Positions 5,424 through 57,898 of a stretch of DNA of 59,604 bases are shown piece after piece; within the stretch, counting starts at the first letter, position 1, and the number at the start of each line of letters is the position of its first letter. The stretch is from Chiloscyllium plagiosum. Its lineage: Eukaryota. The notes under the pieces were generated by a model. It was not told the DNA's origin, made no database searches, and saw only the letters and a program-made list of their open reading frames with translations. Position numbers and translations under genes: made by a program. Location of the stretch: assembly GCF_004010195.1 (NCBI RefSeq), contig NC_057718.1, forward strand, positions 101,948,197 to 102,007,800, written 5' to 3'.

Positions 5424-5542
5424 CAAATCACAATCTTTCAGAGTGCTGCTCCTTCATCAGGTGAAGTCACTTCAAGCTTGCGATTTCAAATAAACCCGTT
5501 GGACTATAACCTAGTGTCATGTGGCTTCTGAAATTGACCACC

Positions 5543-10589: not shown

Positions 10590-11076
10590 CTAGTTTTTCC
10601 TCAGCAGGTTTTTTAGGCTTCTCTCCACTGCTTCATCCAACTCTTCCTCCAGCTCTTCCTTCTTTGACATAGCCAATTTGGACTGGTAATCACTCACTCT
10701 TTGGTCGATGTAAGGAGCACTCTGGGTCCCGTGGAGCATCAAGGTCCATTCCTTGAGCACCCCTTTCTGCTCAGTGCCACCAACAAAACCAACCTCCAGG
10801 ATCCAAGTGCCCCTAGGGTCTTCGCCCCAGGTGTGTGTTGTCATGAAAGGCCACTTGTCAAAGCCCACCTTAGAGTCATCATCCCGTGGCCTGCGGCTGA
10901 GCAGAATGGACTTGGTGCCCATTGGGGAGGTCAGGTTGGCGTTAAGGTCACCTCGCCTGGTGGAATTCATGGTCACCACAGCCTGGACATGCTCAAGGTA
11001 GCGGACAAAGTTATCCTTCCCCTCACACGCATCGGTTGATATTTTTAGGACCATCTTGTTGTCCGATGAGATTGCC
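10590..11076 (-). CDS. PCSK2: PCSK2 last coding exon: P-domain (RRGDL) and C-terminal tail ending ...ERSLKNLLRKN*
   Basis: ORF 10590..11054 extended to a ttacAG acceptor; 487 bp to the TAG stop. The seven exons sum to 1374 bp, in frame. Confidence 0.97.
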
Positions 11077-11142
11077 CTGTAACAAGGAAAAGAAATGGGA
11101 GGCCATTAAACAGGAGCAAGACTCTGGCTGCGATCATAAAAG

Positions 11143-11786: not shown

Positions 11787-13774
11787 AAACTGAAGGACTC
11801 ACCTTTGATCTGTCAGTTATGGTTGAGACTGCGGCTATGCTACTAAAGTCACCCTGTCGTCTGAGGGGTCAGTCACTGTAAAATGGTTTCTATGAAATAA
11901 TTGTCTGCAAGATTGTGATTCTTATGGTCCCATTCGTGCTAATGACGTGCTGATCCTCTGCCCTTCTCTCTTCGTGAAAGCATCAACTTTTCGTTAGGGA
12001 CATCGCAGTCTGGATTGTGAAGAATGGCCATGATAAAGCAGCATTTGATCATTAAAGAGTTTAAATAAGCTCCAAAGTTGAAACACAGACTCACCAAGCC
12101 CTGGGGAGAAACAATCTCTAGGCTGTCAGAAACTGCAGATACATTCATCAGAACGAGAAACCTGAGGTGATGTTTTGCCTACACAGGCTGCACCAGCACT
12201 GGGGATTTAAAGCATTCTGTGGGTGAAGTCAATCTAGCAGAAATGTCCTCCTACTCTTTTCATTTGCCTCAGGAAGCTCTTAGCTATGGTGCAGCATCAA
12301 GCATTCTGACAGCTAAGTGTTGCAGCCTGAGCCATCAGTTTTCCCAGCCGCTGAGGTTTTCATTAATTCTGATCTTTTTATGGGCTTTTACAGCAAGGCC
12401 TGATTATTACATTACTCCGATCACTTGCATTGCAGCTTCTCGTAATCTAACATCTTCAAATGTGGAAATGAAAGCCATTCATTTTATTAGATGTACCCTA
12501 AAGGATACAGCTCCTCAACTCTTTCGGAAGCAGAATTATTTACTTGTCTGGATTCAACAATGCACCATGCTGTTAAACAGTAATTGTATTCCTCAATATT
12601 ATCACTAAAAAATACATCTTACGAAGTTAACACTACAGCAGGGAACCATTCGGCCTGATATCTGGCTCTGCATTTGTTTCGTCTGGAACATTTACTAAAT
12701 CTGTGCAAGGACTTAATTATGCTTTAATTCTTAAAGGGTTCAAGAGTAAATATGACTGTTCAACATTAATGAGGTATGCTACTTTTATTTATTTATTCCC
12801 ATTGTTCAAACACAGACATCAGTTGAAACAACAGCAGAATCAGATCTTTGCCTGTAGCGACAGTGACTATATTCCCATCAGGCAGCTCTCACATTACAGA
12901 GAGATATTGGGTGGTGGTCTAACCTGAAGATCACCACACCTCTAGTGATATTGGGAAGTAGAGAGCTTCATGATAACCTCAGATGATGCAGGATTTGAAC
13001 CTGTGCTGTTGGAATCATTCTGCATTGTAAACCAGCTACCCAGCCAACTGGGCTAACATTAGACAATTTAAGATGAGCATTCAGTCACATCATGCAATCC
13101 ATTTCCATTATATCATTATATGATTCCTTATTATTGAGTTCATTACCCACTTTAAGAACTCAGGCACCAGGTTTTACAATGTAAACTGGATTACAGCTCT
13201 GAAAGCTTTTTAAGACATTCGTTCACAGGACATGGGCATTGCTGGCTGAACTAAATTTTGTTGCCTTCATTAATTGCTCTTGAGAATGTGATGGCGAGCT
13301 GCCTTCTTGAACAGCTGAAATCCATTTGGCATAGGGACACACTCTAGTGTTGTGGAGAAGGAAGTTCCAGGGTTTTGACCCAGTGACACTGAAGGAACAG
13401 TGATATATTTCCAAATCAGGATGATGTGTGACTGGGAGTGGGTGGAGTTCTCATGTATCTGCTGCCATTGACCTTTTAGATAGTGGATGTTCTGGGTTTG
13501 GAAGGTGCTGTCAATGGATAATAGGTGAATTGTTGAAGTGCATCTCATAGATGGTATACATTGCTGCTAGTGAATGTTGTAGGAGCTGGTCTGGTGCCAG
13601 TCAGTCTTTGGTCTGGATGGTTTTGGGTTTCTTGAGTGTTGTTGGAGCTGCACGCTTCCAGGCAAGTGGAAACTATTCCATTACACTCTTTAAATAGCAT
13701 CTTAGGGAAACAGGAGATAAGTTACTTGCCTCAGAATTCCAAGCCTCTGACCTGCTCTTATCGCCACAATATTT

Positions 13775-14190
13775 GTGGATGTAGGTTTGCTCACTGAGCT
13801 GGAAGGTTCATTTTCAGACGTTTTGTCACCCTACTAGGTAACATCATCAGTGACAAGATTAGAGTGGTGTTGGGAAAGGACGTTTCAGGCAAAAACCCTT
13901 CATCATTCCAGATGAGGGGCTTGTGCCCAAAATGTTGATTTTCCTGCTCCTCGGATACTACCTGACCTGCTGTGCTTTTCCAGCACCACTCTAATCTTGA
14001 CTCTAATCTCCAACATCTGCAGTACCCACTTTTGCCTAACATCTTCAGAGAGCCTTCAGAGGCTCATCCAGAGGCTCACTGAAGATGTTACCTAGTATGG
14101 TGATGAAACGTCTGAAAACGAACCTTCCAGCTCAGCGAATAAACCTACATCCAGAACCTCAACCTGATTAACAAATCTTCTCAAAACTCG
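13775..14190. mobile_element. Palindromic Poseidon-like PLE terminal cassette with a nested Neptune-like cassette (13853-14035)
   Basis: Inverted arms; outer TSD tcgccaca(a/g)t(a/g)ttt; inner TSD taacatc(a/t)tcag(t/a)ga. Confidence 0.75.
14076..14115 (+). ncRNA. Minimal hammerhead ribozyme motif, family B
   Basis: tca-CTGAAGA-T-GTTACC-TAGTAT-GGTGAT-GAAA-CG-TC-tga. Confidence 0.68.
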
Positions 14191-14321
14191 CCACAGTGTT
14201 TATATGGCTGGTCCAGTTTAGCTTTTGATTAGTGGTAAACCCCCAGAAGTGTTGATTGTTGGGGTAAAATGCCAGAGAATATAAAAGGACAAAGATTAGA
14301 TTTTTTCTTGTTGAAGATGGT

Positions 14322-14755
14322 TGGTGTGGTGGCTCAGTGGTTAGCACTGCTGCCTCACAGTGCCAGGGAGCTGGGTTCAATTCCAGCCTCAGGCAACAGT
14401 CTGTGGAGTTTGCACGTTCTCCCTGTGTCTGCGTGGGTTTCCTCCCACAATCCAAAGATGTGCAGGTTAGGTGAATTGGCCCTGCTAAATTGCCTATACT
14501 GTAGGTTATTAGTCAGGGAGAAAGTGAGGAATGCAGATGCTGGAGATCAGAGCTGAAAATGTGTTGCTGGAAAAGCGCAGCAGGTCAGGCAGCATTCAAG
14601 GAGCAGGAGAATCGACGTTTCGGGCATGAGCCCTTCTTCAGGGGTTATTAGTCAGGAGTAAATATAGGAGAATAGGTCTGGGTGGGTTACTCTTTGGAGG
14701 GTCGGTGTGGACTTGTTGGGCCAAAGTGCCTGTTTCCACACTGTAGGGAATCTAA
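14322..14755 (+). mobile_element. HE1-like SINE interrupted by a hammerhead cassette
   Basis: Same family; insertion at 14517-14642. Confidence 0.8.
14608..14642 (-). ncRNA. Minimal hammerhead ribozyme motif, family A
   Basis: Minus strand CCTGAAGAAGGGCTCATGCCCGAAACGTCGAT; cassette 14517-14642 sits in a SINE with TSD ggttattagtcagg. Confidence 0.7.
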
Positions 14756-16616: not shown

Positions 16617-16810
16617 GAGAGTGCAGTGCTGGAAAAGCACAGCAGGTCAGGCAGCGTCCGAGGAGCAGGAGAATCGGCGTTTTGGGCTTCATCGATGAAA
16701 CATCGATGCCCAAAACGTTGATTCTCTTGCTCCTCGGATGGTGCCTGACCTGCTGTGCTTTTCCAGCACCGCACTCTCGACTCTGATCTCCAGCCTCTGC
16801 AGTCCTCACT
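16617..16810. repeat. Palindromic PLE-derived cassette, family A (cores degenerate)
   Basis: Inverted arms of about 70 bp spanning 16617-16778. Confidence 0.8.
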
Positions 16811-16819
16811 GTGTCCCGT

Positions 16820-17565
16820 TCAGGTTTTCCTGTTTTGGAAGGATATTGTTAAGCTGGAGAGCTTGAGCAGGGTGTCAGAGCAAATTACTGCAGAGGCTGG
16901 AATCTGTACTGAAAACAACAAATGCTGGAGATCACACCAGGTCAGGCAGCAAAGATGGAGAGAGAGCAGGCTAATGTTTCAAGTCTATGTTACTCTTCAT
17001 CAGATGAAGATGAGGAGTCATCCAGACTCGAAAGGTTAGCTTTCTCTCTCTCCATGGTTGCTGCCTGACCCACTGTGATCTCCAGCATTTGTTGTTTTTA
17101 CCAGGATGTTGCCAGAAAAGGAGGGTCTGAGGTTTGAAGAAAAGGCTGGGGCTTTTTTGACAGGATCATAGGAGCCCCAGTGTGAGGTGACCTAATAGAG
17201 GTTTATAGAATCATGAGGGGTGTAGATATGGTGAATGGCAGATGTGTTCTCCCTAAGGAGGGGAATTCAAAACAAGGGGGTTTATTTTTAAGGTGAGAGG
17301 AGAAAGATTTAAAAAGGACATGAGGGGCAACTTATTTACACAGAGAGTGGTTTGTGTATGGAATGAACTTTCAGAGGATACAGGTACAGTTACAACATTT
17401 TAAGACTTTTCGATAATGAATAGAAATATTCATTCACTACATGAATAAGAAATGTTTGGAGGGATATGGGTCAAGTGCAGGCAGGTGGGACTCGTTGAGT
17501 TTGGGAACGTGGTCAGTGTGGATTAGATGAACCGAAGGGTCTGTTTCCGTGCTGTATGACTCTGA
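16820..17565 (+). mobile_element. CR1-type LINE 3' fragment
   Basis: Aligns by eye with 2990-3480; interrupted at 16880-17099. Confidence 0.75.
16880..17099. repeat. Palindromic PLE-derived cassette (diverged family A) inserted in CR1
   Basis: Inverted arms 16912-17099; remnant gatga-g-GAGTC-atcca-GACTC-gaaa. Confidence 0.7.
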
Positions 17566-21310: not shown

Positions 21311-21649
21311 TACTATGTAATCTCACTATGTTGGGAGTGACAAAACTAAAATTACAGAAATAGTGGTGACAAGATCATTTGTAAAATGTTACCTTATAAA
21401 ACGTGGAACAAAATAGGACTTATGGCAGGGACTGAAGACAATGATTTTATCAAATAGCAAAACAGGCTCAAGGGGCCGAATGGCCTACTCAGAGTCATAG
21501 AGCTGTACAGCACGGAAACAGATATTTCAGTCCAACCCATCCATGCCGACAAGACATCCTAAATTAATCTAGTCCCATTTGCCAGCACTTGGCCCATATC
21601 CTTCTAAACCTTTCCTAGTCAGGTTGCTCACTGAGCTGGCAGGTTTGAT

Positions 21650-21692
21650 TTCAGATGTTTCGTCACCATGCTAGGTAACATCATCAGTGAGC
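21650..21692 (-). ncRNA. Minimal hammerhead ribozyme motif, family B
   Basis: Minus strand tca-CTGATGA-T-GTTACC-TAGCAT-GGTGAC-GAAA-CA-TC-tga. Confidence 0.7.
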
Positions 21693-22685
21693 CTCTGGTG
21701 AAGCATTGGTGTTCTGTCCCGCTTTGTATGAATGTGTCTTGGTCTGTTAAGGTGGGTGATATCATTTCTGGTTCTTTTTCTCAGAGGCTGGTAAATGGGG
21801 TCCAAATCGATATGTTTATTGATGGAGTTCTGGTCTGAATGCCAGGCCTTTAGGAATTCCCATGTGTGTCTCTGTTTAGCCTGTCCCAGGATGGATGTGT
21901 TGTCCCAGTCAAAGTGGTGTCCTTCTTCATCTGTATGTAAGTATATACATCTGTATACTAGTGATCGTGGGTTATATCTTTTGGTGATTAGTTGGTGTTT
22001 GTGTATCCTGGTGGCTAGTTTCCTGTCTGTGTGTCCGATGTAGTTTTGTTACAATCTTTGCAGAGTATTTTGTAAATGACATTTGTTTTTCTCGTTGTTG
22101 GTACAGGGTCCTTTAGGTTCATCAGGAGTTGTTTCAGTTTGTTGGTAGGCTTGTGGGCTACCATGATGCCAAGGGGTCGGAGTAGTCTGGTAGTCATCTC
22201 TGATATGTCTTTGATGTATGGTAGTGGTAGAAGGCTCATGCCATTCCATCCACTCCACCCAAGAATTCCTGAACATCATTAAAGACACCAAGATAGACGA
22301 AGACGAAATAATGGTCTCCTTTGCTATAATAGCCCTATTCATACCCATCAACATCAACCTGGCCAAGGAAACACTGACCGCACTGCGAGACAAACCAAGG
22401 ACACAAACACCAGACAACACCAACTCCATCTGCGAGGACAACATCTTCAAGCTAGTGGATCTGTGCTTCACTACTCACTTCACCTTCAATGACAAGACCT
22501 ACAAACAAATCAACAGAACACCCATGGGATCACCAATATCAGGCTTCTTAGCAGAAGCAGTAATGCAGACACTCAAACAAACAGCTCTCCCCATGATCCA
22601 ACCCAAATTTTGGATCCGCTACATGGATGGCACTTTTGTCATCACTAAACAGAACAAATTAGAGGAAATCTACAACATCATCGAC

Positions 22686-22971
22686 AACACGATTGCTCAG
22701 TGGCTAACACTGCTGCCTCACAGCGCCCAGGGACCAGGGACCTTGGCCGACTGTGTGAAGTTTGCACATTCTCCCCATGTCTGCGTGGATTTCCTCCCAC
22801 AGTCCAAAAACGATGTGCAGGCCAGGTGAATTGGCCATGCTAAATTGCCCATCGTGTTAGGTGCATTAGTCAGGGGTAAGTGTAGGGAAATGATTTGGGT
22901 GGGTTACTCTTCGGAGGTTTGGTATGGACTTGTTGGGCCGAAGGGCCTGTTTCCTTACTGTAGGGAATCTA
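22686..22971 (+). mobile_element. HE1-like SINE inserted in the PLE RT
   Basis: Same family as 826-1136. Confidence 0.8.
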
Positions 22972-24439
22972 ACCGAAAACATCCTTACTGTCATACATTT
23001 CATAAAGGGGAAGGGGAACAACAACAGACTCCCTTCCCTAGATGTCACAGTGGAACAAACAGCTAATGGAGAACTGCAGACAGTGTCTATAGGAAAGCAA
23101 CACACACAGACCAGATCCTTAACTAGAGAAGCAAACATCCTAACACCAACAAATGGATGCATTAGGGAATTATTTACACGGGCCACAAAACACTGTAGCA
23201 CCCAGGAACTATGAACAGAAGAAGAACATTTTCTGTACAATGTAATCAAGAAAAACAGGTACCCGATAAACACAGTCCACTGATTCTTAAACAACAACCC
23301 CAAACAAATAGAAACAACATGCCCCAAAACTCTAGCCACATTACCATACATCAAAGACACCTCGAAGATGTCTACTAGACTACTCTGAGCCCTTGGCATC
23401 ATGGCAGCACACAAATCTACCAACACAGTGAAACAGCTCCTGATTAAACTAAAGGATCTTATAACAACAACCAGCTAAACGAATGTCATTTACAAAATAC
23501 CGAGCAAGCACTGTAACAAACACCACATCAGACACACAGAAAGGAAACTAGCCAACAGGAAGCACGAGCATCAATTAGCCACTAAAAGACATGACCCTCT
23601 CTCACTAGTATCCTTACATACAGATGAAGAAGGACTGGGACAACACATCCATCCTGGGACAGGCTAAACAGAGACACACATGGGAATTCCTAAAGGTCTG
23701 GCATTCAGACCAGAACTCCATCAATAAACACATCAAATTGGATCCCATTTACCAACCTCTGAGAAAAAGAACCAGAAATGATATCACGCACCTTAACAGA
23801 CCAAGACACATTCATACAAAGCGGGACAGAACACCAGCCCTTCACTGGAGACTCACTAGCATGGTGACGAAACATCTGAAATCAAACCCGCCAGCTCAGT
23901 GAGCAAACTTACACTCTGAACCTCAACCTGAGCTACGAATCTCTCAAAAATCGCCTTCCTATTCATATACCCATCCAGATGCCTTTTAAATGTTGTAATT
24001 GTACCAGCCTCCACCACTTTCTCTGGCAGCTCATTCCATACACGCACCACCCTCTGCGTGAAAAATTTGCCCCTTATGTTCTTTTTAAATCTTTCCCCTC
24101 TCATCTTAAACCTACTCCCCCACTCTGGGGAAAAGATCATGTCTATTCACCCTCATGATTTTATAAACTTCTATAAGGTCACTCGCTCAGCCTCCGATGC
24201 TCCAGAGACAATACCCCTCCGATCCTATTTGGTATGTAAGGTGGAACATACCTTGCTGGGAGTGCAATTAGCCTTTGGCAGTGAATTGGACTGAAAAAAG
24301 GGAGGTTTAAAAAAAGAGAGGTAAACATAACGAGACAGGCAAATTAAAAATGTGAATTTAGGGAAATGGGAAGATATCAGAATATGAGCAAAAAGCAATA
24401 AGGGCAATAAGAGGGTGCTAATTAGGCACATTCACAGGA

Positions 24440-24780
24440 AGGACACAGCAGGCCAGGCAGCATCCGAGAAGCAGGAGAATCGACGTTTCGGGCATAAACC
24501 CTTCTTCAGGAATGAGGCTGGTGTGCCAGGCGGGCTAAGATAAAAATCATGTGGTCAGGGTCTGGCGATGGAGGAGGCCAAGGACCTGCATGTCCTTGGT
24601 GGAGTGGGAGTGGGAGTTAAAGTGTTCTGCCACGGGGCGGTTGGGTTGGTTGGTGCGGGTGTCCCAGAGGTGTTCCCTGAAACGTTCTGCAAATAGGCAG
24701 CCCATCTCCCCAATGTAGAGGAGACCACATCGGGTGCAACGGATACAGATGATGTGTGTGGAGGTGCAGGCAAATTCACC
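24440..24780 (-). mobile_element. PLE 3' fragment: GIY-YIG endonuclease remnant plus hammerhead repeat
   Basis: ORF 24547..24882 includes ICIRCTRCGLLYIGEMG..ERFREH...PVAEHFN. Confidence 0.85.
24478..24514 (-). ncRNA. Minimal hammerhead ribozyme motif, family A
   Basis: Minus strand CATTCCTGAAGAAGGGTTTATGCCCGAAACGTCGATT. Confidence 0.72.
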
Positions 24781-25971: not shown

Positions 25972-26490
25972 GTTGGCACAGTGGCTCAGTGCTGCTGCCT
26001 CACAGGGACGCGAGTTCGATTCCAGCCTTAGGTGACTGTCTGTGTGGAGGTTGTATGTCCTCCCTGTGTCTGTGTGGATTATCTCCAGGTGCTCCGGTTT
26101 CTTCCCACAGTCCAAAGATGTGCAGGTTAGGATGTACAAAGTTAAAAATCACACAACACCAGGTTATGGTCCAACAGGTTTAATTGGAAGCACACTAGCT
26201 TTTGGAGCGTCGCTCCTTCATCAAGTGGAGATGGAGGAGCGTCACTCCGAAAGCTAGTGCTTCCAATTAAACCTGTTGGACTATAACCTGGTGTTGTGTG
26301 ATTTTTAACTTTGTACACCCCAGTCCAACATCGGCATCTCCAAATCAGGTTAAGATGGATTGGCCATGCTAAATTACCCCATAGTGTGCAGGGATGTTAA
26401 GTTTAAGCCTGGTCAATGCAGGGTTACTCCAGGGAGCTGGGTCTAGAGGGTATGCCCTTTGGGACTGATTGGGCTGAATGTTGTCATTCT
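25972..26490 (+). mobile_element. HE1-like SINE interrupted by a palindromic cassette
   Basis: Same family; insertion at 26133-26347. Confidence 0.75.
26133..26347. mobile_element. Non-coding palindromic hammerhead cassette, family C, inserted in a SINE
   Basis: Inverted arms 26133-26317; TSD caggtta(g/a)gatg. Confidence 0.85.
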
Positions 26491-29370: not shown

Positions 29371-30886
29371 CTTTTGGAAATCTGCCATCCTTACCTGGTC
29401 TGGCCTACATGTGACTCCATACCCAAGGCAATGGGGTTGACTCCTATCTGCCCTCTGGGTATTAAATGCTGCCCACATTCCCTGGCAAATGTTTATAAAG
29501 AGTGTTATCCTCAGAGGAGAAAAGGTTGAGAGGAGATTTGATGGGTCTGGATGATGCAGGCTGTGACATGAGATCCTTAAGGGCATTTGACTAAGGGGAT
29601 GGATTCTGAAAGGACATTTATCCTTGTGAGAAAGACTAGGACTAGGGGACACTCACACAAACAAGTGTATCTTCCATTTCAGAAATGGATGAGGCAGAAA
29701 TATTTTCATTCAGGGGGCCATGAGTCTCTGAAACTCTCTTCCCCACAAAGCGGTAGAGGTGGGGGTCATTGAACATTTTTAAGGTGGAGTAAGATAGATT
29801 CTTGGCCAATGAGGAGGTTATTGGGTTTGGTGGGAATGTGGAGTTGAGGACATAATCAGATCAGCCATGACTTTAATGAATTACAAGTCAGGCTAGAGGG
29901 GCTGAATAGCCTTCGCTTTGTATGCTCAGAGGCAAACATTGAGTAACTCTTCCCATTGGCAGAAATGTCAAAAACCAAAAGACTCTATCAATATGATAAA
30001 TGGCAAAAGAAACCCAATGGCCACAGGAGAAATAACCTTTTCCCTGAATGAACGGTTTAGGATCTGGACTTCCTGAGTATGTGATAGAAACAGAGTCAAT
30101 CCTCGATTTTGAAATGGAATACAATGGTTAGCTTTTAACTTTACTTCTTTATTTTTCTACCTTGTACCTAGGATTTGGTAACTAGGTACCTGGCACCTAA
30201 GATGGCGTTGGGAATGACAACTTTGTACACTTTTCACTCTATTCCTCTACTTGAGCACACCTGAAATAAAATCTAATTCTAATTCTAAGGACTTGTCAGC
30301 CTGTAGGTGGGGCTGTGGGACAAACAGAGATGCTCTTGCAGAAGGCCTACATGGGCTCATTGGGCTGAAGGGTCTCAATTCGTGTTGTAGCCATTGTATT
30401 ATGACTTGGTCACACCCCTCTGGCTAAATCCACAAATCTGTACAAGCTACAGTCATTAAAGGACAGGAGACCCCAAGGTATACATTACCAGATGAGTTAG
30501 GATGCAGAAGCATTGATATGATTTGATTTGTTAGTGTCACATGTATCACGGTACTGTGAAAAGTGCTGTCTTAAGTGCTTTGCAGACAGATTGTACTACA
30601 CAAGTGCATCAGGCTAACAGAACAGAGTGCAAGATAGTGCCAAGAAGGTGCAGAGAGAGAGCAACATTAACATTAAAGAGGTCCATTCAAAAGCAGGGAA
30701 GAAGCTGTTCTTGAATCTGTTTGTACGTGTACACAAACATTTAAATCTTCTGCCAGACAGAAGAGGGTGGAAGAGAGTATAACTGAAGCTTTTGATTACT
30801 GGGCATGTATTTGAGGAGGACTAATTTGACACACTGTAGGGAAATAGCTGGCATCTCTGATTAAATTGGGCAGTGCTCTCAAAGAG

Positions 30887-31062
30887 GAGACAGTGAGGGC
30901 TGCAGATGCTGGAGATCAGAGTTGAGAGTGTGTTGCTGAAAAAGCACAGCAGGTCAGGCAGCATCTGAGGAGCAGGAAAATCGACATTTTCCTGATGAAG
31001 GGCTCTGACCCAAAACATCGATTTTCCTGCCCCTCGGGTGCTGCCTGACCTGCTGTGCTTTT
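30887..31062. repeat. Palindromic PLE-derived cassette, family A
   Basis: Inverted arms 30940-31062; TSD tctcaaagag; CTGATGA at centre with a mutated GAAA. Confidence 0.8.
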
Positions 31063-31732
31063 CTCAAAGAGCCAGGATAGACCTAATGTTTTGAGCCTTT
31101 ACCCCCATTGTGAGATTATACGATTCATCAGCCCAATCAAAGAGGCACCATCTTGCTGGGAAAGGTGAACCCGAATATTAGCAGAGTTCCATGGAATGAA
31201 AGTTTTTCCCAATCCCACTTTGTTACGTGAATCGCTTTACTTCACCTCCATTCCCTCCCTCTCTCCAACTGTTGCTACCTGCTCCTAGGGTAATCTTCTG
31301 CTTGATTCTTCCATGGGATGTGGGTTTCATGGGCAAGGCCAGCAGTTGTTGCCCATCCTTAATTGCCCCTGACCTGAGTGCCTTGCTCAGCTCTTCCAGG
31401 GGGCAGTTAAGCATCAATGACATTGTTGTGGGTCTGGAGTCACATGTTGGTCACATCAGGAAAGATTTCCTCCCTTTTGGGAACATTCTGACCCCAACGG
31501 CCCTTTGTGACTAGATTATGATAGGTTCATGGTCACCATTACTTAAGCTAGCTTTATGTTCCACAACTTGTAAAGACTGGAATTGAAATTTCACTCACTA
31601 CCATGGTGGATTCAAATCTCCACACAACTACCCTGGGCCTCGAGGTTACTGACTCACTGACATTACCACTAACTACGCCATCATTTCTCCAAAAACACAA
31701 TCAGAGATACTCAATGACAGCAGACCCAAGCT

Positions 31733-33068: not shown

Positions 33069-36000
33069 ATTGGTTGTCTGGGAGGATACAACTGAGTCTG
33101 AGGTTTAGCCAGGGTCTTACTGGAAGGAGGTACAGCTTCAGAGAGCTGAATGGCCTAATCCAACATCTTGCTTTTACGTTTCCAAATTAACATCGGGCTT
33201 TTTACTCGGATTTTCAGCTCCTGGTGGTTGTAGGTGGGATGGTCTATCTTGAAATGCACTCTGAGAAGCTGGTGTGTGAGTCAATCACTGGAATAACTCC
33301 AGCACAAGTTCGTTTTGAAGAATAAGTGAATGGTGCTGAAAGCCAGGTTGGTGGAGGGACAGAAATGGCTTTTGTGTGTGTTATGTATAAACATACAAAT
33401 TAGTAATAGGAGTAGGCCACTCAGCCTCTCAAGCCTGCTCCCCCATTCAGTAAGGTCTAGGCAGATCTGATTACTCTGCATTCCTATCTTCCTTTCTTTC
33501 TTTTAGTTCATTCATGGGATGAGGGTGTGACTGGCTGGGCAGCATTTATGACCCATCCCTAATTGCCCAGAGGGCAGTTAAGAGTCAACCACTTTTCTGT
33601 GGCTCTGGAGTCACATGTTGGTCAGACCAGGATGAGGTTGGCAGTTTCCTTCCTTGAAGGACATCAGTGAACCAAATGGGTTTTTCCGGAGAATTGATTC
33701 ACGGTCACCATTAGATTCTTAATTCCAGAGTTTCATTGAATTCAAATACCACTATTTGCCTTGGCAAGGTTTGAACCCAGAACATTACCAGGGTCTCTGA
33801 ATTAACAGCCCAGTGATAACACAACTAGGTCATCGCCTTTTACTCATCACAAAACTACCTAATTCAGCCTTAAAAATATTCATAGAACGTGAGGCTTCCA
33901 TTGCCATTTGGGGGCAAGTCCCAAAGATTCACAACCATCTGTGAGGAATAAAGATCATCTTCCTCTCTGTTTCAAATGGGCCTATGCTGATTTGCAAACA
34001 GTGTCCCCTCATTCTAGATTCTCCCACAAGAGAAAACTTCCTTTCCACATCCACCTGGTCAAAACCCTTCAGGACCTCCAATCCTATACAATGAAAGGAT
34101 GCTTCCCATCAGTGAGCTTTATTTAGAATATCAGTTGTGTGGTCACAGGTACCTGCAACCAACCTCATGCTATTCAAGACACACATCATGTGACACCAGC
34201 CCAATGTATCATTTGCACCTTACTTCTATTCAATGAATAATACAGCACACTGTAAATCACCCTCCTCAGCTGCTCTGAATTAACCATGATGTGGAGGTGC
34301 CCGGGTTAGACTGTGGTGAGCAAGGTCAGAAGTCACATGGCACCCGGGTTATAGTCCAATGGGTTTATTTGAAATGACAAGCTTTTGGAACACTGCTCCT
34401 TCATCAACTCACCTTATGAAGGAGTAGCGCTTCAGAAGCTTGTGATTTCAAATAAACCTGTGTCATGTGACCTCTGGCTCCGAATTAACATCCACTCTGT
34501 CATGACACAGCCTACTCTGTTAATGAATTTTCACCACACTCTAGTAATGATATTACAAATCAAAACACACAATCACACAGAAGCGATCTCTTTCCAATTC
34601 TTGATAATTGTTGATTTTCAATATAAATTCAACAAAAGCCAGTAATGTCCCTATCCCGTGAATGAATAGAAATACTAAAAAAAAGAGCAAATTTAAATAA
34701 AAATTTGGCCCACAGATTTTAAGATCACACGATGAAAATGGTGTCGATTGGTTTTCAAAACCTAGGAAAATGTAAAAATTCTGATCTTACTTTAGCAGAG
34801 AAGGGGTAATAATTGTAGAAGTGTCAGCATGTGAGATTTGTTTGTGAGTTATTTCTGAATCCCATTTCAGATGACATGACACTGAGACCTTGTCTGTTCT
34901 CTCAAGTGGCAGACGGAGGATCCCCTGTGATATTATTTTGAAGACGGACAGGAGAGATCTCTTTGTATCCAGTATTCATTCTTAAACCAACATCAATAAA
35001 GAACCAATTACTTGGTCTTAGTGGGAATCTGCTGTGTGAAAATCATCAGCTGCATTTTCTATATTGCAAAACTAAATATAGTTCAAAATTACATCATTGG
35101 CTGTCAAACACTTTGAGACATCTGAGGTTATAAAAGTGTAGCTGTTGAGATGCAAGGGGTGTGATTTGTATAAATTTTGATATAATTTAATTTAGAGATT
35201 GCATTTTGCAGTAGTGGCATGTGGGTTTGCTCAGTTTTTAATGATTAACTTGCAACTATTTCTGTGGCCATGGTGACTCATTTTAAAACATATAAGAGGA
35301 GGGAGACTCTCTTGAGAGTCATGGGATTTTGTTCTTATTCAGTGAGTTTCAATAATTGTTTAAAGAAACTTTTTTTTTAGTTCTAGGTTTCACGAGTCTT
35401 GGATGAAGCTGGATATGTAAGGCAGTTACTGATGGAGAAGGAGATAGTTTTGAACTCCTGCGAAACAGGTTACCTCAGTGTAAATGAAAGTTCCAGACCA
35501 GAAGTGGTTAGTTAAGCCCAGGAGGAATTATTGGAAATTGAGAAAGCTCAGTTGTATCAAGAATCCAGTAAGAGGCAATCAGATTCTAAAGACTGGAAAT
35601 TAAGCCACAGTTGAATTAAATCCTATGGACAAGGTAGAGAAAGGAATTCTCTCTGGTGTGAGTACTGTAAAGGAGTGCTGTTGGAAATTTTGAGATTGGA
35701 TTTTACTGTCTATTTCAAAATCTTTAATCTTGTGTTATATGCAAAATAGCTTGGTTTATTCTATGGTTTTCTTAATTTCTTCTTGCATCATAAACTTCCA
35801 CTTTATTGTTAAAACCAAATCTGCTAAAGACCACCACATTAAAATCAAATAAGAAGTAAAAAAAATAATTCCATTGAGCCAGATTTCAGCCTGGGATCTA
35901 GCAAATCGAATAATAACATTCAACAACAATGTAAGTTTCTTTCTTTCACATAGCATCTTCAATCTACAGGATGTTTTATATGAAAATTATCAACTACAAT

Positions 36001-39094: not shown

Positions 39095-39527
39095 TGAAAC
39101 AACTCTTCAGAGGCTGGCATGCCATCACCCATCATTCTTTATTTACAAATGCATAGCCTTTGACAATAGCACAACCTCTCACTGAGTCAGGCATTCAGGG
39201 CTCAGTATCCCTGACATTCACCCTTTTATGGTAGACAGGCAGGAGGCTGGAATAACACAGCAAGCCAGGCAGCATCAGGAGGTGGAAAGTCAAAATTTCA
39301 CATGTAACTCTTCCTGTAACCTTGACTTCACTTACTGATGCTGCTAGGCTTGCTGTGTTTTTCCAGCCTCCTGCTTGTCTACCTTGGAATCCAGAATCTG
39401 AAGTTTCTTTTGTCTCATTTACCCTTTGATGTCAGCCAGGGCTCCCTGATTGGACCAGCTTAACAGCCCAATCAGGGGTCTCATATTCTATGAGGTCTAG
39501 CTGGCTGACCTCATTACAAACACAACA
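39095..39527 (-). mobile_element. Probable solo LTR inserted in a CR1
   Basis: TG...CA ends, 5-bp TSD gg(a/t)aa, homologous to 5543-5762. Confidence 0.6.
39230..39420. repeat. Palindromic PLE-derived cassette (diverged) inside a solo LTR
   Basis: ggtagacaggcaggaggctggaa ... ttccagcctcctgcttgtctacc. Confidence 0.7.
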
Positions 39528-42904: not shown

Positions 42905-43378
42905 AGGAAACCCACATGAACGTTATCTACAGGATACCCTGCAGGGACTGTCAGAAACACTTCACAGGGCAGACAGCCATATGAGTGCACAAACATCAGC
43001 TGGCCACTGCCAGACATGACCAATACTCTCTCATTCCCAACCCACAGACAATGGAGGACACAAATTCAACTGGGACAATGTAACCATCCGAGCACAGGTG
43101 AAACAGGAATTTCTTGAAGCCGGGCACTCCAACCGGAACTCAATCAATAGACCGGAACTGGACTCCATATACAAACTGCTCAGATACACAATCAGAAGTA
43201 ACAACAAACAGAGACATATAAATACCAGGCAGGATAGAGCACCAACACCTTATCAAAGATGCACTGATCATGTCACCTTGCGAGGTGACGAAACGCTTGC
43301 AGAAAATCAAGTGGGCTCAGCGAACAAATCCACAACTTCATCCACAATGCGAGCTACAAAATCTTCTCAAAAACTCTA
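42905..43378 (+). mobile_element. Poseidon-like PLE 3' fragment (GIY-YIG remnant plus degenerate hammerhead)
   Basis: aacgttatctacaggataccctgc reads NVIYRIPC; FLEAGHS...SIN; similar to 23480-23954; CTGATCA-TGTCACC..GGTGAC-GAAACG at 43264-43296. Confidence 0.75.
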
Positions 43379-46566: not shown

Positions 46567-47046
46567 CTGTAAGAGATCAGTACATCAAACTGAAGCTTCA
46601 AATGATATGAATTCTCATTATGAAGAAATGTAAAAACACAGTCATTGGGAGGAAAATAGACAACAGTTCATCCTGCAGCAAAATGGGTACTGCTTAGTTA
46701 GTAACCGATAAATTATGATAATTTGCAATTTGGCATTCTTGGATATGTCCTGATGAATGAAAAGTGCAAAGCCTCATCATCATTTGACTTAGATCTAATC
46801 AATAATTATGACCATTTTTAACTAAGTAGCTTTTCTTTAATGTGGAAGTGCCAATGTTGGACTGGGGTGGACAAAGTCAGAAGTCACATGACACCAGGTT
46901 ACAGTCCAACAGTTTATTTGAAATCACAAGCTTTTGGAGCATTGCTCCTTCATCAGGTTTATAGATTTTAACATAGGTTTTGTCTCACACATACAACATG
47001 TAAACTACCAATTGTTACACATTTTGACATATATAACAGGATAGTA

Positions 47047-51093: not shown

Positions 51094-52895
51094 TTCCCAT
51101 TCAATGTAAGTCAGGGCCTATTTTCTTCCTCAATTTCTTAATTCTTTGATCATCCAACATCTATTGATCTCAGCCTTGAATCTTCTCAATGACTGGGAAG
51201 TGGAATTAGAGGAGAAAGGTTATCACAGAATTCATGGGCCATAGAGCCTCTTCTGTGCTGTATGACTTGATAACCAAAGCCCCACAGCCAACTGGGGTAG
51301 ATTCTTCCATGGATCAGCAGCCTTCCAATTGAAGCAATGTCTCTTCATCTCAGTCCTACATAACAGATTCCTTACCTTGAAGCCACGAGCTGGATTTTCC
51401 TAGTCTACTTGCTGATTGATTTACTATTAAGCTGATTGAACATCAATGATCCCGATAAGGAAAATGCTGAGAGGTTTACAGCAGTCAGGGAGTCTAGAAT
51501 TCGGGAATGTTGTCTCAGGATATAGGATGATCATTTGTGACTGAGATGAGGAAGAAGTTCTTTCCAAAAAAAGGATTGTGAATTTTAGGCACTCTTCACT
51601 ATGGAGGGCTATGGATGCTCCATCGTTGAAGATACTTTAAGGCCAGGAAAAAACAGACCTTGGTTTCTGAAAGAATCAAGGGATACACAGAGTGAGCGGG
51701 AAGGTGCAGTTGAAGTCCAACATCAGCCATGGTTATATAAATGGCGGGGCAGGTTGGATGGATGAAATGGTCTACATCTGCTCCTATTTGTTGCATTCCT
51801 GGAGATTGGGCTTAGTATGAGGGGCTGGCTCAGAAAAATAGTGCTTGGAAGTAACTCAACTCAAGTGTGCATGGGATGATCATTCGGATGGATATGGTAC
51901 AGCATCCCTACCTCTGAACCTTGAACCTGGGTTCAAGTCCTTCCCGCTCTGAAAATGTGTCTTAACACATGAACAGGTTGATTGGAAAATATCTGGAAAT
52001 GCTGTGCAGGATGTTGGGAAAAGGCAGCAGATTGGCACTAGAACTGGTGAAGGCACAATGGGCCGAATGGCCTTCTTCTGTACCATAATAATTCTGTGTC
52101 TCTGTGAGGGCAAGCCTGGAGACAGCTCTCTGATGTTTTCTTGGCCAATATTAATAGAGGTCTCAGTGTGGCTGGGTGAATGAGGTTGGAGGGATGAAAG
52201 TGTGCTAAGACATTGGAGCCAGAGTTCCCAAACCTTACATCTATGGGGTGTGGGTGGGTGCATCAATGAAAGGCCACCATCGTATCTGACCCATGGTTCA
52301 GCACAGGGGTCTCCCTCCTAACCCAGTCTAAGACAGTGATGGGTATCTCCACATTGAGAATGCCCACATTACAAAGTTACCACTGGAGTATCGATTTCAC
52401 CATTCTTTCTGCCACCACCTGCAGGCTCAGGAATCTTATCTGCTCCCGATATCGGGATCCCAAAGCCAGTAGGAACACCTTGCCAAGTGATCCCTTGTTT
52501 TAGGTTCCCCAGCTGGAGCTGGAAGAGGGTAGAACAACCTCTCACAACCTCTGCCAGGGTCTGCAAGAATTTTATGCATTTCCGTGAGATATGCAATCCT
52601 GGGCAAGAAAACCACAAACATTAATCGGCAAAATGCAAAACAAAAATCTGAGGGAAGTGAACAATCAATTTCTTTCTGAAATAGCTTAGCCATCATAAAT
52701 AAAGTCTACTTGTTTGAATTAACCTGTTCAATAATTCCACAATTAGACAGGGTGCACATTTACCAAAATTATGCTGTGACGTGCTGCCAATATACAGCCA
52801 ATTGAGAGATGTTCCAAGGGTTCTGGGAGATTTTGACATTGCCTTAATGTCATAACTGTCCCTCAGGGATTTGTGAACCTTCTGAACATTAGCAA

Positions 52896-53405
52896 GGTTC
52901 TGGATGTAGGTTTGCTCGCTGAGCTGGAAGGTTGATTTCCAGACGTTTTGTCACCATACTAGGTAACATCTTCAGTGGGCCTCCGGCCGAAGCACTGCTG
53001 ATAATTCCTGGTTTCTATTTATATGTTTGGGTTTCTTTGGGATGGTGATGTCATTTTCTGTGGTGATGTCATTTCCTGTTCTTTTTCTCAGGGGTTGGTA
53101 GATGGGGTTTAACTCGATGTGTTTGTTGATAGAATTCTGGTTGGAATGCCATGCTTCTCAGAATTCTCATGCATGTCTCTGTTTGTCTTGTCCTAGAATG
53201 GATGTGTTGTCCCAGTCGAAGTGGTGTCCTTCCTTGTCTGCATGTAAGGATACTAGTGAGAGGAATTATCAGCAGTACTTCACCCAGAGGCCCACTGAAG
53301 ATGTTACCTTGTAAGGTGGCGAAACGTCTGGAAATGAACCTTCCAGCTCAGCGAGCAAACCTACATCCAGAACCTCAACCTGAGTTACAAATCTTCTCAA
53401 AACTT
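52896..53405. mobile_element. Poseidon-like PLE terminal fragment arranged as an inverted repeat
   Basis: About 52896-53010 is the reverse complement of about 53262-53375; the interior matches 21700-21965. Confidence 0.8.
53292..53331 (+). ncRNA. Minimal hammerhead ribozyme motif, family B
   Basis: cca-CTGAAGA-T-GTTACC-TTGTAA-GGTGGC-GAAA-CG-TC-tgg; stems I and II pair. Confidence 0.75.
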
Positions 53406-54741
53406 GTTCAGGAAGGTTTGAGAAAATCAGCCTTATTTACATAATGAAGATTGATGTCTTGTTAATTCATTGTTGGACAGGCATATATGGGTGATAGAGG
53501 GGCTCTGTGGCTACTATTAAACAGTCATGGCTGTCCCTTGCTCCACGTCAAGGGGCTGAATGGCCTCTTCCCAATCCTAAGCGTGGAACAAATTGTTGTG
53601 AATCTTTTTCCATGTTTGTCCCCTCAGTTTATCATCAGGCCGCGATTTCAATCCAAGTTGGGTTAATCTTTTGGTTTCTGCTGTTGGTTAGGACATTTTT
53701 CCTTTCTGCTTCCTCCTGCCTCATTCAACAACAATGCACATAAATTTTGTAATCCAGTGTTCCCCAGCTAAACACCCTCCCCAACTCCCTCAGGGTATTC
53801 AGTATGATTCATTAAGCATTTATTACACAAAGCATTCTCTTCAGCTACAGCCTGGATGAGCTTTAATCTGACAAGACACCAGATGAGTCAGTTGTCACAA
53901 TGACATAGCCAGAGCCTGAAGATGTTTTCATTCCATGATCCAATTAACAGACATGTCACCGCCTGCTTCTAACAATCCCTGATACAACCTGCCTTTATTT
54001 TCCAGCACTTAGTCAAATTACAAAGTGAAATTCTAAAGGAAGGCATGTATGCTCATTCAACCTCGTTCCGTTCAGTGTCAAAATAAAGAAACTGAAACCA
54101 TCTCAAGGAATTTCTCATATATTTTTGGCAATTACTCCCACAAGCAAGGCTTTGGAATATATATTGGAGCATGGAGTTGAGAGTTGGGGAATAATTAATC
54201 CAAAGCGTTGACAATGGGTCATAGGGTGCAGTTGCAAGACAGTTAGAGTCATTCTTACACACTTAAGTTTTGAAATATCATGCATGTTAACTTGTTGAAA
54301 GTATGAGCTGGTAATAATGCAGTGAGTGAAACTAGACAGCTAGACTATTAAATGAACACCACAATGTATACTTTAACCAATTAAAGTGAAGGATTGCAAA
54401 ATGAATAGGGCAAGGTCTGAAAGGAAATGCAAATTAGAGCAACCTTGGATCCGATACAGAAAAAGATACAAAATGGGTGAAAAAACAATTGATTAAGAGA
54501 GGGAGAAAGAGGAAAATAATAAGAAAAAATGTAAGATTTTAATAGCAATTAGAAACTGAAGGGATGAACCTTTACATTTTCAATATTGCAGTATTGTATT
54601 GGGATGAAAATTAAATACATATTTGAATACCATTTTTAAAGTTTGGATTTGAAAATAGTGGCAATACTGTGAAGGGCTTCTTTCAATAAGAAATTAGGTC
54701 AAACAATCCTTCCAGACCAGTGACCTAATTTACTCTGTAAC

Positions 54742-54994
54742 ATGATGTGGAGGTGCCGGTGTTGGATTGGGGTGGACAACGTCAGAAGTCAGATGACACC
54801 GGATTATAGTCCACCAGGTTTATTTGAAATCACAAGCTTTTGGAGCGCTGCCCCTTCATCGGGTGAAGTGAGAGAGAATTCTGTGCCTGAGGGCTTCTCT
54901 CTCTTGCTTCACCTGAGGAAGGAGCAGCGCTCCGAAAGCTTGTGATTTCAAATAAACCTGTTGGGCTATAACCTGGTGTTGTGCGACGTCTGAC
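54742..54994. mobile_element. Non-coding palindromic hammerhead cassette, family C variant
   Basis: Inverted arms 54781-54994; related copies at about 5074-5540 (split by a SINE), 34286-34472 and 46840-46958. Confidence 0.8.
54910..54944 (+). ncRNA. Minimal hammerhead ribozyme motif, family C
   Basis: cac-CTGAGGA-A-GGAGC-AGC-GCTCC-GAAA-GC-TT-gtg. Confidence 0.72.
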
Positions 54995-55441
54995 AGAGAG
55001 CAGGTGACTATGAACTGATGGAACGCTAGTGGGAAACTATGCTGCTTTATGAAAGATAAACATTGAAAACCGTCAACTTGCTTTTCAGTTTAGATTAATT
55101 GAAAATTGATTTTGATTTAGAAAGCCTACACCATAAAAAATTCTTTTCAGAGGAGACCTGACTAGAGTCAGAAATGACTATAATTTCTCTACTAGAATGC
55201 TGCAGAGTGATTAAGTGAATAAATTAGCTCAGTCGATAAGTTTGATTGATGCAACTCCCAGACCAGGAGTGTTTGGTAGAAATCTGCCAGTTATTAGAAA
55301 CGGAAAAGGTCTAAGTTCTCAGTTTTGAGAGTAGTCACATAGGAAGAACCATAGTTCATAAGACAGAAACTGAGGGAAATCAATTAAGTTGAACTTAAAG
55401 TTTTGATGTACAGGTAACAAATACTATTGGGAAATGAGTTG

Positions 55442-55646
55442 GAGGTGCTGGTGTTGGACTGGGGTGTACAAAGTTAAAATTCACACAACACCAGGTTATA
55501 GTCCAACAGGTTTAATTGGAAGCACACTAGCTTTCGGAGCGTCGCTCCTTCATCAGGTCCTGTTAAAGGAGCAGCACTCCGAAAGCTAGTGTGCTTCCAA
55601 TTAAACCTGTTGGACTATAACCTGGTGTTGTGTGAATTTTAACTTT
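55442..55646. mobile_element. Non-coding palindromic hammerhead cassette, family C
   Basis: Near-perfect inverted arms 55470-55646; TSD tattgggaaat(g/a)agttg. Confidence 0.85.
55524..55559 (-). ncRNA. Minimal hammerhead ribozyme motif, family C
   Basis: Minus strand ac-CTGATGA-A-GGAGC-GAC-GCTCC-GAAA-GC-TA-gt. Confidence 0.75.
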
Positions 55647-57433
55647 ATTGGGAAATAAGTTGACACATTGTTTTGCAGTGCATTTTCGGACCTTTCAAAA
55701 TTGTTTTCTAAATCTAGTTTGCTCGGCTTTCTTTGCTGTGGGAATTGATCCACCTTATTCACCCTACCCAGGGCCCTCAATTTTTCACATGGTAATTAAA
55801 TCTTCCCTGAGCTTCTTCAGTTTCAAACAAAATAATCCCAACCTATCCAAGGTTTCCTGGACATTCAAATACTCCATTCATGGTTGGGAATTCTACAGTG
55901 AGTAACTCACATCCTGACTCCCCAAAACCTGTCCACCATCTACAAGGCACAAGTCAGGAGTGTGATGGAACACTCCTCACTTGCCCTGGATGGGTGCAGC
56001 TCCAACAACACTCAAGAAGCTCGACACCATCCAGAACAAAGCACCATGCTGGATCAGAACTCCATCCACAACCTCCAGCAATCACTCTCCCCCATGGCTG
56101 ACACTCAGTAGTGGCAGTGTGCACTACCTGCAGGATGTACTCACTAAGCCTCTGTCAACTTTCCAAACTGCAGAATCACAGAGTCATACAATACTTAAGA
56201 GGTCCTTTGCTCTATTGAGTTTGTACTTCCAAAACTTTATTACTACCTACACCAGCCTCACCTTCCCACATGATGTACACAGCCCTGAATGAAATGACAC
56301 TTCAAATGTCCCTCCATGTACTTCTGAAAGGTTGTCCACTTACCTCCAAAGCAGTGCATTCCAGTTCCCCGCCATTTTTCCTCAATTCCACTAACATCCT
56401 GCCTCTCACTTTAAAATTATTTCCCCCTTTCATTAAACCTTCGACTAAGGGGAATAGTTGCTTCCTCCCCCTCCGTACATGTCCCCCCCATTATCTTACA
56501 TACCTCTATCAGGTCCTTCCTTGGCCTTCTCTGCTCCAAAGGAAAAACCCAAGCTTCTCCAGCATCTCTCCCCTGATGAAATGCTCCCCTTGGTGAATCT
56601 CCCCTGCACCCCTCCAGTGCAAACACATCCTTCCGGTAGTCAGGAGACAAGACTTATTGGACACAGTACCCCAGCTGTGACCTAACCAAACTCCCGTACA
56701 GCTTCAACATAACCTCTCTGCTCCTATCTTCTATGTGTTTTTTTTCACGTATGGGATGTGGATGTTACTGGCTGGCCAGAATGATTTTTTTAGTTTATTA
56801 TTGCCTGTCCCTAGTTGCCCTTGAGACGGTGGTGGTGAGCTGTTTTCTTGAATTGCTGCAGTCCACCTGCTGTAGGTAGACCCACAATACTATTGAGAAG
56901 GAATTCCAGGATTTTGACTCAATGACAGTGAAGGGCCAGTGATATATTTCCGAGTTGGGATGGTGAGTGGCTTGGAGGGAAACTTGAAAGTGGTGGTGTT
57001 CCCATGCATCTGCTGCCCTTGTCCTTCTCAATGGAAGGTGCTGTCTGAGGACTTTTGGTGAATTTCTATGGTGTATCTTGTAGATAGTACACACTGCTGC
57101 TACTGAACGTCGGTGGCGGAGGGAGTGGATGCTTGTGGATGTAGTGCCAATCATGCGGGCTGCTTTGTCCTGGATAATGGCAAGCTTACTGAGTGTTATT
57201 GGAGCTGTACCCATCCAGTCAAGTGGGGAGTATTCCATCACACTCCTGACTTGTGCCTTGTAGATAGTGGACAGTCTTTGGGGAGTAAAGAGGTGTGATA
57301 CACACCACAGTATTCCTAGCTTCTGACCTGCCCTTGTAGCCACTGTGCTTATGTGGTGAGTCCAGTTAAGTTTCTGGTTAATGGCAACCCCAGGAAATTG
57401 ATAGCGGGGGATTCAGTGATGGTAACACCATTG

Positions 57434-57662
57434 GAGATAGTGAGGACTGCAGATGCTGGTAAGTCAGGGTTGATAAAATGTGGAACTGGGAAAAGATCAA
57501 CAGGTCAAGCAGCATCAGAGGAGCAGGAGACCCAATGTTTTGACCCAAGGATCCTGCCTGAAAGCAGTCCAGTATGAGGGTCCTGCCAGAAACATCGACT
57601 CTCCTGCTCTTCTGATGCTGCTTGATCTGCTGTGCTTTTTCCAGCTCCACACTTTATTGACA
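57434..57662. repeat. Palindromic PLE-derived cassette (diverged family A)
   Basis: Inverted arms about 57470-57660; flanked by atggtaacaccattg on both sides. Confidence 0.75.
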
Positions 57663-57734
57663 ATGGTAACACCATTGCTGAAAATGTGTTGCTGGAAAAA
57701 CGCAGCAGGTCAGGCGGCATCCAAGGAACAGGAG

Positions 57735-57770
57735 AATTGACGTTTCGGGCATGAGCCCTTCTTCAGGAAT
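57735..57770 (-). ncRNA. Minimal hammerhead ribozyme motif, family A
   Basis: Minus strand ATTCCTGAAGAAGGGCTCATGCCCGAAACGTCAATT. Confidence 0.68.
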
Positions 57771-57898
57771 GAGGAAAGTGTGTCCAGCAGGCTAAGATAA
57801 AAGGTAGGGAGGAGGGACTTGGGGGAGGGGCGTTGGAAATTTGTGGAACGTTTCAGAGAATACCTCTGGGACACCCGGACCAACCAACCCAACCACCC

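Follow-up and report, generated by a model that had tools for sequence, protein, structure and literature searches.

Hammerhead-bearing palindromes in a genomic window of Chiloscyllium plagiosum as probable stub insertions of Penelope-like elements

The focal palindrome and its setting

The window, that is, the whole 59,604-nucleotide stretch of Chiloscyllium plagiosum DNA analysed here, is vertebrate DNA with two N gaps, and it carries on its minus strand the exons of a PCSK2-like proprotein convertase gene. The P-domain exon in 10593-11105 (Pfam P_proprotein, E 6e-24) has furin and kexin structures as its best matches, Peptidase_S8 exons lie near 19.9-20.3 and 38.0-38.4 kb on the same strand, and further exons are seen near 41.5 and 46.5 kb; more 5′ exons of this gene were not found in the window. 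The palindrome that is our main subject is located further upstream than any of the exons found and is therefore probably intronic.

The first-pass annotation had described this locus as an insert of about 205 bp with a target site duplication (TSD) of about 17 bp, whose inverted arms meet at the ribozyme 5′ ends, and this description holds. The arms at 55470-55557 and 55559-55646 are identical at 83 of 88 bases (94%) around a one-base centre, and the 17-bp TSD contains one mismatch, with an equal score reached by none of 300 random position pairs. Because the last eight bases of the left TSD resemble the element terminus, the exact 3′ end is ambiguous within 55434-55442; the 3′ ends of the family pile up as loose contig ends at 55434-55440, with peaks at 55434, 55439 and 55440. 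As an RNA, the insert has a computed folding energy of −148.6 kcal/mol (z −24 against 200 shuffles). All five differences between the arms fall in the inner 17 bases (55560-55576, P 2e-4), the outer 70-72 bp or so are identical, and the letter common to both arms at 55480 and 55636 makes up at most 6% of the family depth. Differences confined to the inner part, together with a shared minor variant, suggest arm-to-arm conversion in palindromes.

Table 1. Coordinates of the focal palindrome, its parts and the related insertions in the window. Arm positions are counted from hammerhead C3; RT, reverse transcriptase; PLE, Penelope-like element.
Feature	Coordinates	Strand	Remarks
Left TSD, focal locus	55425-55441	+	17 bp; last 8 bases resemble the element's terminal bases
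3′ extension ("tail")	55442-55469	−	28 bp; long arm only
Long arm, putative family A PLE end module	55442-55558	−	−2 to about +114..+122
Minimal type I hammerhead motif	55526-55558	−	C3 at 55556; strict descriptor
Short arm, tail-less	55559-55646	+	−1 to +86
Second hammerhead copy	55560-55588	+	two core substitutions; different loop II variant
Right TSD, focal locus	55646-55662	+	
Family A sister palindrome (26133)	26123-26357	long arm +	12-bp TSD; in SINE-like repeat
Family A second-subfamily palindrome (34286)	34272-34489		13-bp TSD; short arm with internal deletion
Family A second-subfamily palindrome (54742)	54742-54994		20-bp centre; no significant TSD; plus arm meets strict motif
Solo family A copy (46843)	46843-46958	−	no inverted arm; starts at −2
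Family B palindrome (16617)	16617-16816		helix II lost in both arms; TSD borderline
Family B palindrome (30887)	30877-31071		10-bp TSD; long arm from +21, short arm from −3
Family B palindrome, decayed (57434)	57419-57677		15-bp TSD
Family C palindrome (13775)	13761-14195		family B insertion nested in centre
Family C, head-to-head layout at 2.3 kb (21620)	21612-23965		broken PLE RT and endonuclease coding in both arms; 10-bp TSD
Family C palindrome (52896)	52895-53400		0.5 kb
Family D palindrome (16880)	16884-17098		arms 87% alike; no significant TSD

A strict descriptor of the minimal hammerhead, based on Cervera and De la Pena 2014 and applied to the whole window, gave eight matches, compared with none in 200 dinucleotide shuffles, and one of the eight is the minus-strand motif of the focal locus. 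This motif has the extra base after position 9, a 5-bp helix II and the palindromic 15.2-16.2 positions, and its predicted cut lies between 55528 and 55527. Its helix I is only 2 bp long because the head-to-head junction falls at −2, and helix I measures 0-4 bp across all eight strict matches. The core substitutions of the plus copy are at +3 and +5 (55563 and 55565), where the family letter makes up 96% and 92% of the depth in sequencing run X1. Thus, the earlier claim of one hammerhead per polarity, intact on the minus and mutated on the plus strand, stands overall, with "intact" limited by the 2-bp helix I to the core and helix II. An Rfam search at E ≤ 1 returned eight matches, all below the gathering score and none to a hammerhead family; its miRNA matches are the hairpins themselves.

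Ten palindromes in four families

The same design had been reported at nine further loci, and all ten indeed consist of head-to-head arms with one outer end longer than the other; by helix II and the downstream sequence, however, they fall into four families rather than one (A: 55442, 26133, 54742 and 34286; B: 16617, 30887 and 57434; C: 13775 and 52896; D: 16880). A hammerhead on each strand, as had been claimed for these loci, was not recovered in strict form: the strict motif is found on both strands at none of the ten and on one strand at three (55442, 54742 and 52896). Nor does the term "short cassettes" suit 13775 and 52896, with centres of 222 and 261 bp. Over the ten loci the centre lengths are 1, 7, 11, 20, 222, 261, 3, 9, 21 and 49 bases, all different.

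The outer ends follow a regular pattern. The long arm exceeds the short one by 25-53 bases at nine of the ten loci and by 77 bases at 34286, where the short arm is internally deleted. Within each family the outer end of the long arm is nearly constant (A, +116 to +127; B, +114 to +125; C, about +105), and that of the short arm is variable, with best-alignment ends from +63 to +95. TSDs of 8-17 bp were found, scoring above 99% of the null at six loci (55442, 26133, 34286, 13775, 30887 and 57434) and borderline at 16617 and 52896 (0.063); at 54742 and 16880 no TSD was significant against the random-pair null. The SINE-like repeat that hosts the 26133 insert is uninterrupted in its other window copies, and a 2-bp indel, itself a variant of the family (5-15% of the DNA depth), distinguishes the two arms of this insert. 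The long arm of 30887 lacks the hammerhead core, and at 52896 the tail-less arm extends about 300 bases upstream into the end of the ORF, the tailed arm about 35-45. Solo copies are not confined to the family A example in Table 1, since several are also present in family B.

Differences between arms are concentrated inside the motif, with 35 of 196 positions affected there and 24 of 348 outside (seven loci, P 1.5e-4), in a post hoc comparison whose signal is partly CpG decay and loop variants. This pile-up looks like decay rather than selection, with the copies inert.

Several other arrangements were noted in the window. The family B palindrome nested in 13775 (13853-14063) has an internal deletion and apparently duplicates about 12-14 bases from the hammerhead region of family C, so that one PLE family has landed in the motif of another. 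The flanks of 52896 (52872-52887 and 53404-53420) show an inverted, not direct, resemblance that covers about 14 of their 16 bases, and a clear TSD was not found; a target inversion upon insertion is possible. Two insertions of family B lie side by side at 57419-57845, where a minus-strand B copy (57677-57834) directly follows the TSD copy of 57434 and runs into an N gap. A further head-to-head hairpin at 39230-39383 represents a fifth family, decayed and akin to B and D, with no TSD found; a family A copy at 5425-5542 has a very short left arm, a rearranged centre and a right arm without the 5′ half of the motif; and a family B copy at 14505-14660 starts from −1 and has about 14 flank bases directly repeated on both sides. 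Older inverted repeats at 3660-3945 and 6850-7168 belong to other repeat families and have no hammerhead core. PLE coding remains lie upstream of a hammerhead motif at 42919-43370 (plus strand), in a family C copy that has diverged. A weak PLE coding match (24604-24753, minus strand, E 0.007) lies upstream of the family B copy at 24509.

The abundance of the family and of its junctions was assessed by comparing contigs of three sequencing runs, X1, X14 (a related organism) and X16, with positions 54600-55900 at 85% likeness; the summed contig depth is no copy number, some joints in X1 were left uncounted, and perfect hairpins assemble badly. In X1, the unique flanks have a depth of about 9-10, the arm 1,527,073 (at 55542) and the focal centre 697 (at 55559), with a different letter in 395 of these; in X14, the arm has 1,405,707 and the focal centre 1,075, with a different letter in 699. 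The focal centre thus amounts to less than 0.05% of the arm depth in X1 and less than 0.1% in both runs. The different joints number 1,524, the best supported at about 400-540 or about 0.04% of the arm depth, and other copies contribute pieces that span the centre with letters and gaps of their own. No peak matching the short-arm end was present among the 18 of 1,783 loose ends listed, and no joint of the focal empty site among the 15 of 1,524 joints listed. Taken at face value, these depths mean a family copy number in the order of 10^5 and no master palindrome, an estimate with which the 11 family A arms counted in 58 kb are consistent. Pattern scans for further copies returned 0 loci in the metagenome, viral and genome contig collections.

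Origin of the palindromes and of their two arms

Family C connects the palindromes to Penelope-like elements, since its head-to-head layout is the same at three sizes (13775; 52896, 0.5 kb; 21620, 2.3 kb) and includes coding remains. In the 21620 element, the RT remains match Pfam RVT_1 with an E value of 1.6e-6 and 28.4 bits, just below the cut-off of 29.6, and have relatives in sharks at E 3e-63 and 3e-43 (71% and 54% identity); the region downstream is 47% identical to the C-terminal part of the relative P0008. Pfam named only RVT_1 here and not the endonuclease region, where an endonuclease-like motif is presumably the GIY-YIG of PLEs. The RT fragment and the endonuclease-region match sit upstream of the hammerhead motif, inside the head-to-head arms. 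From helix II onward, family C translates like the N-terminus of the shark PLE protein P0007 (17 of 35 residues identical, E 5e-5), and the closest named relatives of a retroelement protein in the window come from two sharks. Since no family A ORF was found in the window, where the ATG of the family A motif reaches a stop after eight codons, the putative assignment of family A to the PLEs rests on the hammerhead type and on a layout identical to that of family C.

Hallmarks of a PLE insertion that are present at the focal locus are a minimal hammerhead, a head-to-head truncated copy, a one-sided tail and a TSD. Each palindrome is very probably one insertion of an endonuclease-bearing (EN+) Penelope-like element, reduced to the hammerhead-bearing end module, and the palindromes are a real and abundant stub form of a known PLE insertion unit with a known minimal hammerhead. 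The first-pass annotation had weighed repeated products of PLE inverted truncation against independent retrozyme-like elements, and the former reading is borne out by the RT and endonuclease remains of family C in the same layout and by centres and short-arm ends that differ. Its argument that differing junctions favour PLE products was also sound, as all ten centres differ and no centre dominates in the genome-wide contigs.

An ambisense viroid-like or HDV-like RNA has a working ribozyme in each polarity. Could the palindromes be independent non-autonomous elements of this retrozyme- or viroid-like kind, whose hairpin or circular RNA, with a hammerhead per polarity, is retrotransposed as a unit? 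We consider this very unlikely. The TSDs do flank whole palindromes, some contig joints reach depths of 100-540, about 10-50 times single copy, so that a few centres may be shared, and family sequence is present in the contigs of X16, a run guessed to be RNA that shows neither strand nor ends. Against these stand the predicted motifs, strict on both strands at no locus; four families with the same layout; short-arm ends that differ among copies of one family; a focal centre and best joint that are both minute fractions of the arm depth; and the existence of solo copies such as 46843. Moreover, opposite-sense motifs cannot form the dimer that minimal hammerheads need, according to the available text of PMC4209133. 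The features of a non-LTR retrozyme are also absent, the motifs being on opposite strands at all ten loci and helix I being 0-4 bp rather than about 6 bp. With neither same-sense tandem hammerheads, nor a two-strand strict motif, nor a recurring unit, the proposal of a retrozyme-like ambisense element is not sustained, and no single unit of centre and both ends recurs in the window; identical central junctions likewise do not recur among the window loci, and none is dominant in X1 or X14, in so far as depth, which is not copy number and leaves some joints uncounted, can tell. An apparent dip in X16 at the motif bin was discarded, as it is gone when set against X14 (0.15 versus 0.19 of the neighbouring bin), and a MITE reading was rejected because the ends are unequal and the TSDs long and variable. 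The joints at 10-50 times single-copy depth do leave room for a minority of hairpins re-mobilised as units by the PLE protein, as a MITE-like retro-palindrome with one hammerhead per strand; this is very improbable, and would require the palindrome to be transcribed from either side, to offer a PLE priming site on each polarity and to be retrotransposed again.

Two further readings can be given hardly any credence. In one, the hairpin is a regulated switch gating ribozyme cleavage of the proprotein convertase pre-mRNA on the minus strand, in keeping with the better motif being on the strand of the host gene and with the probably intronic position. Forcing the ribozyme fold at the focal locus, however, has a computed cost of 36-40 kcal/mol relative to the hairpin; the antisense arm is transcribed first on the host strand; helix I has 2 bp, helix III needs a partner, and the minimal motif needs a same-sense partner; differences accumulate within the motifs, and both orientation and motif state vary among loci. 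Given this energy gap, the hairpin is, in the computed folds, a lock on the ribozyme and not a switch, so that the earlier suggestion of a sequestered ribozyme is upheld and the switch role that went with it is not, for the same gap and for the differences that pile up within the motif. In the other, the palindrome is an assembly artefact of fold-back chimeric reads or collapsed repeats. No locus-specific contig crosses the focal centre among the pieces listed, but an artefact is hard to reconcile with a 17-bp TSD and five arm differences, with other copies whose centres are similar and non-identical, or with the 26133 insert, which interrupts a repeat that is whole in its other copies. Contigs of both X1 and X14 also enter both element ends from the unique flank, over 18-27 element bases (under the tool's bar of 31), which suggests that the focal insertion is older than the split of the two organisms.

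For the PLE insertions, the step that joins the two arms can be considered separately. We lean towards two cDNAs, started from two target nicks and joined head to head. The PLE protein would nick both target strands 10-17 bp apart, and each nicked 3′ end would prime a separate cDNA on the element RNA, one at the distal start, giving the fixed end with the tail, and the other at a more variable proximal site, giving the tail-less arm. About half of the cDNAs would stop at the hammerhead 5′ edge, where either the RNA begins or the RT stalls; the two cDNA ends would be joined by end-joining, and repair would leave the TSD. The inserted copy would thereafter be inert DNA whose motif decays and which, in any transcript, would be locked within a long duplex.

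A single cDNA, or an antisense template as proposed by Arkhipova et al. 2013, that self-primes at the hammerhead hairpin and folds back, with later centre deletions making the junctions differ, is possible though we doubt it; it shares the same PLE origin, bears on the mechanism step alone and leaves the PLE verdict untouched. The focal arms, with their identity over about 70-72 bp, shared minor variant and one-base centre, look like such a product, in each of the four family A palindromes that have two long arms both arms belong to one subfamily, and self-priming has been proposed for PLEs (PMC3846280, available text). With two templates, the identical outer arms and the shared minor letter would need later arm-to-arm conversion. 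On the other hand, each arm of 52896 (about 260 bases), 30887 and 26133 holds unique sequence, the tail-less arm reaching further upstream, and therefore one folded-back cDNA cannot account for them; the arms of the focal locus (loop II) and of 26133 (2-bp indel) also carry different common variants of the family. In the anole, moreover, the PLE protein extends both target strands, as the available text of PMC11167929 reports. Later deletions at the palindrome centre could also explain the unequal 5′ ends and the differing centres.

As to where the cDNAs stop, 15 of the 26 family A and B arms have their start no more than 8 bases from C3 (A, 8/11; B, 7/15). Most family C arms run further upstream than this edge, and family A has no long upstream reference in the window. 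Both arms of 21620 extend far upstream, so that stopping at the motif is not obligatory. Our preferred guess for the 5′ stops is run-off at the RNA start after priming at the 5′-most site, with RT stalling as the alternative. An initiator-like YYANWYY, with its A at −4, is present in both long family B copies and matches several B starts; it is absent at the edge in family C and in one of two family A copies, and may be taken as a hint only of an RNA start. An RNA that begins at the motif would depart from the known case, the D. virilis start site being about 120 nt upstream of helix I (PMC2377424 and PMC4209133, available text). Three candidates were set aside: ribozyme cleavage as the origin of the 5′ ends, as a start no more than 3 bases from the cut site is seen in only 1 of 26 arms (families A and B); a splice acceptor at the breakpoints, comparable to the D. 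virilis intron that ends at helix I, as neither family A nor family B has an AG immediately upstream; and a TATA-like run in the loose-end consensus, where agreement is about 0.4 and only 12 letters agree across runs.

Relation to known elements

The published comparisons that follow are given as the available parts of the cited papers state them. In EN+ PLEs, an inverted 5′-truncated copy adjoins the 5′ end, and one of the two ends carries a tail of 30-40 bp (Craig et al. 2021, PMC8557442); inverted pLTRs with a tail, 8-10 bp TSDs and junction palindromes have been described together with a self-priming proposal (Arkhipova et al. 2013, PMC3846280), and the size of PLE inverted repeats differs from one copy to the next (Schostak et al. 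2008, PMC2377424). The loci here share with this unit the head-to-head arms, the tail on one arm, the palindromic junction, the enclosing TSD and the variable inverted part. They differ from it in that both arms are often only about 90-125 bases long, giving a 200-bp hairpin without an ORF, in TSDs of 10-17 bp as against 8-10 bp in the Adineta PLEs, and in a very high density (11 family A arms in 58 kb).

Pairs of minimal hammerheads, one on each strand, have been published before. Those of metazoan PLEs lie about 100-700 bp apart, single motifs do not cleave and dimers cleave at a low level, and many solo minimal motifs derive from truncated PLEs (Cervera and De la Pena 2014, PMC4209133). The motifs here have the same extra base 9/10.1, G10.1-C11.1 pair, palindromic 15.2-16.2 positions and short helix I; in contrast to the published ones, two motifs can abut directly, and breakpoints cluster at the motif 5′ edge. 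Sharks are not among the vertebrates named for PLE minimal hammerheads in the available text of that paper.

In the Poseidon element PAc of Anolis carolinensis, the ORF starts at stem II, the tail is defined by two start sites of reverse transcription, 111-118 nt into the ORF, nicking and extension take place on both target strands, and hammerhead cleavage is not needed (Frangieh et al. 2024, PMC11167929). Family C resembles PAc in an apparent ORF start at stem II and in copies that end about 100 nt into the ORF, and PAc also resembles the present loci in having two 3′ ends and copy ends that do not reflect hammerhead cleavage. Family A, unlike PAc, has no open frame after the motif, and the available text of the PAc paper contains no model of the inverted arm.

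Retrozymes are head-to-tail tandems with at least two same-sense, mostly canonical motifs and circular monomers (PMC7229834; bioRxiv 10.64898/2026.07.22.740005), and the non-LTR retrozyme has a canonical type I motif with a helix I of about 6 bp and an abundant circular RNA of 170-400 nt. The palindromes resemble them in being short, non-coding and PLE-related with a type I hammerhead, but their arms are head to head, with minimal motifs of opposite sense. We found no paper on Penelope hammerhead palindromes in sharks, and supplements of the cited papers may list shark cases.

Taken together, the kind of element is known, and the residual value of these loci is that of a natural data set on how PLE inverted repeats form. 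The way in which PLEs build these repeats belongs to a cycle that the cited papers call undefined, or for which they propose self-priming without a test. Since there are very many stub-sized events, in which arm ends, 5′ stops and TSD fit within one read, counting them would separate fold-back from two-template priming, and would also show whether the hammerhead 5′ edge is the RNA start. In addition, hairpins packed this densely into introns could feed A-to-I editing or siRNA pathways.
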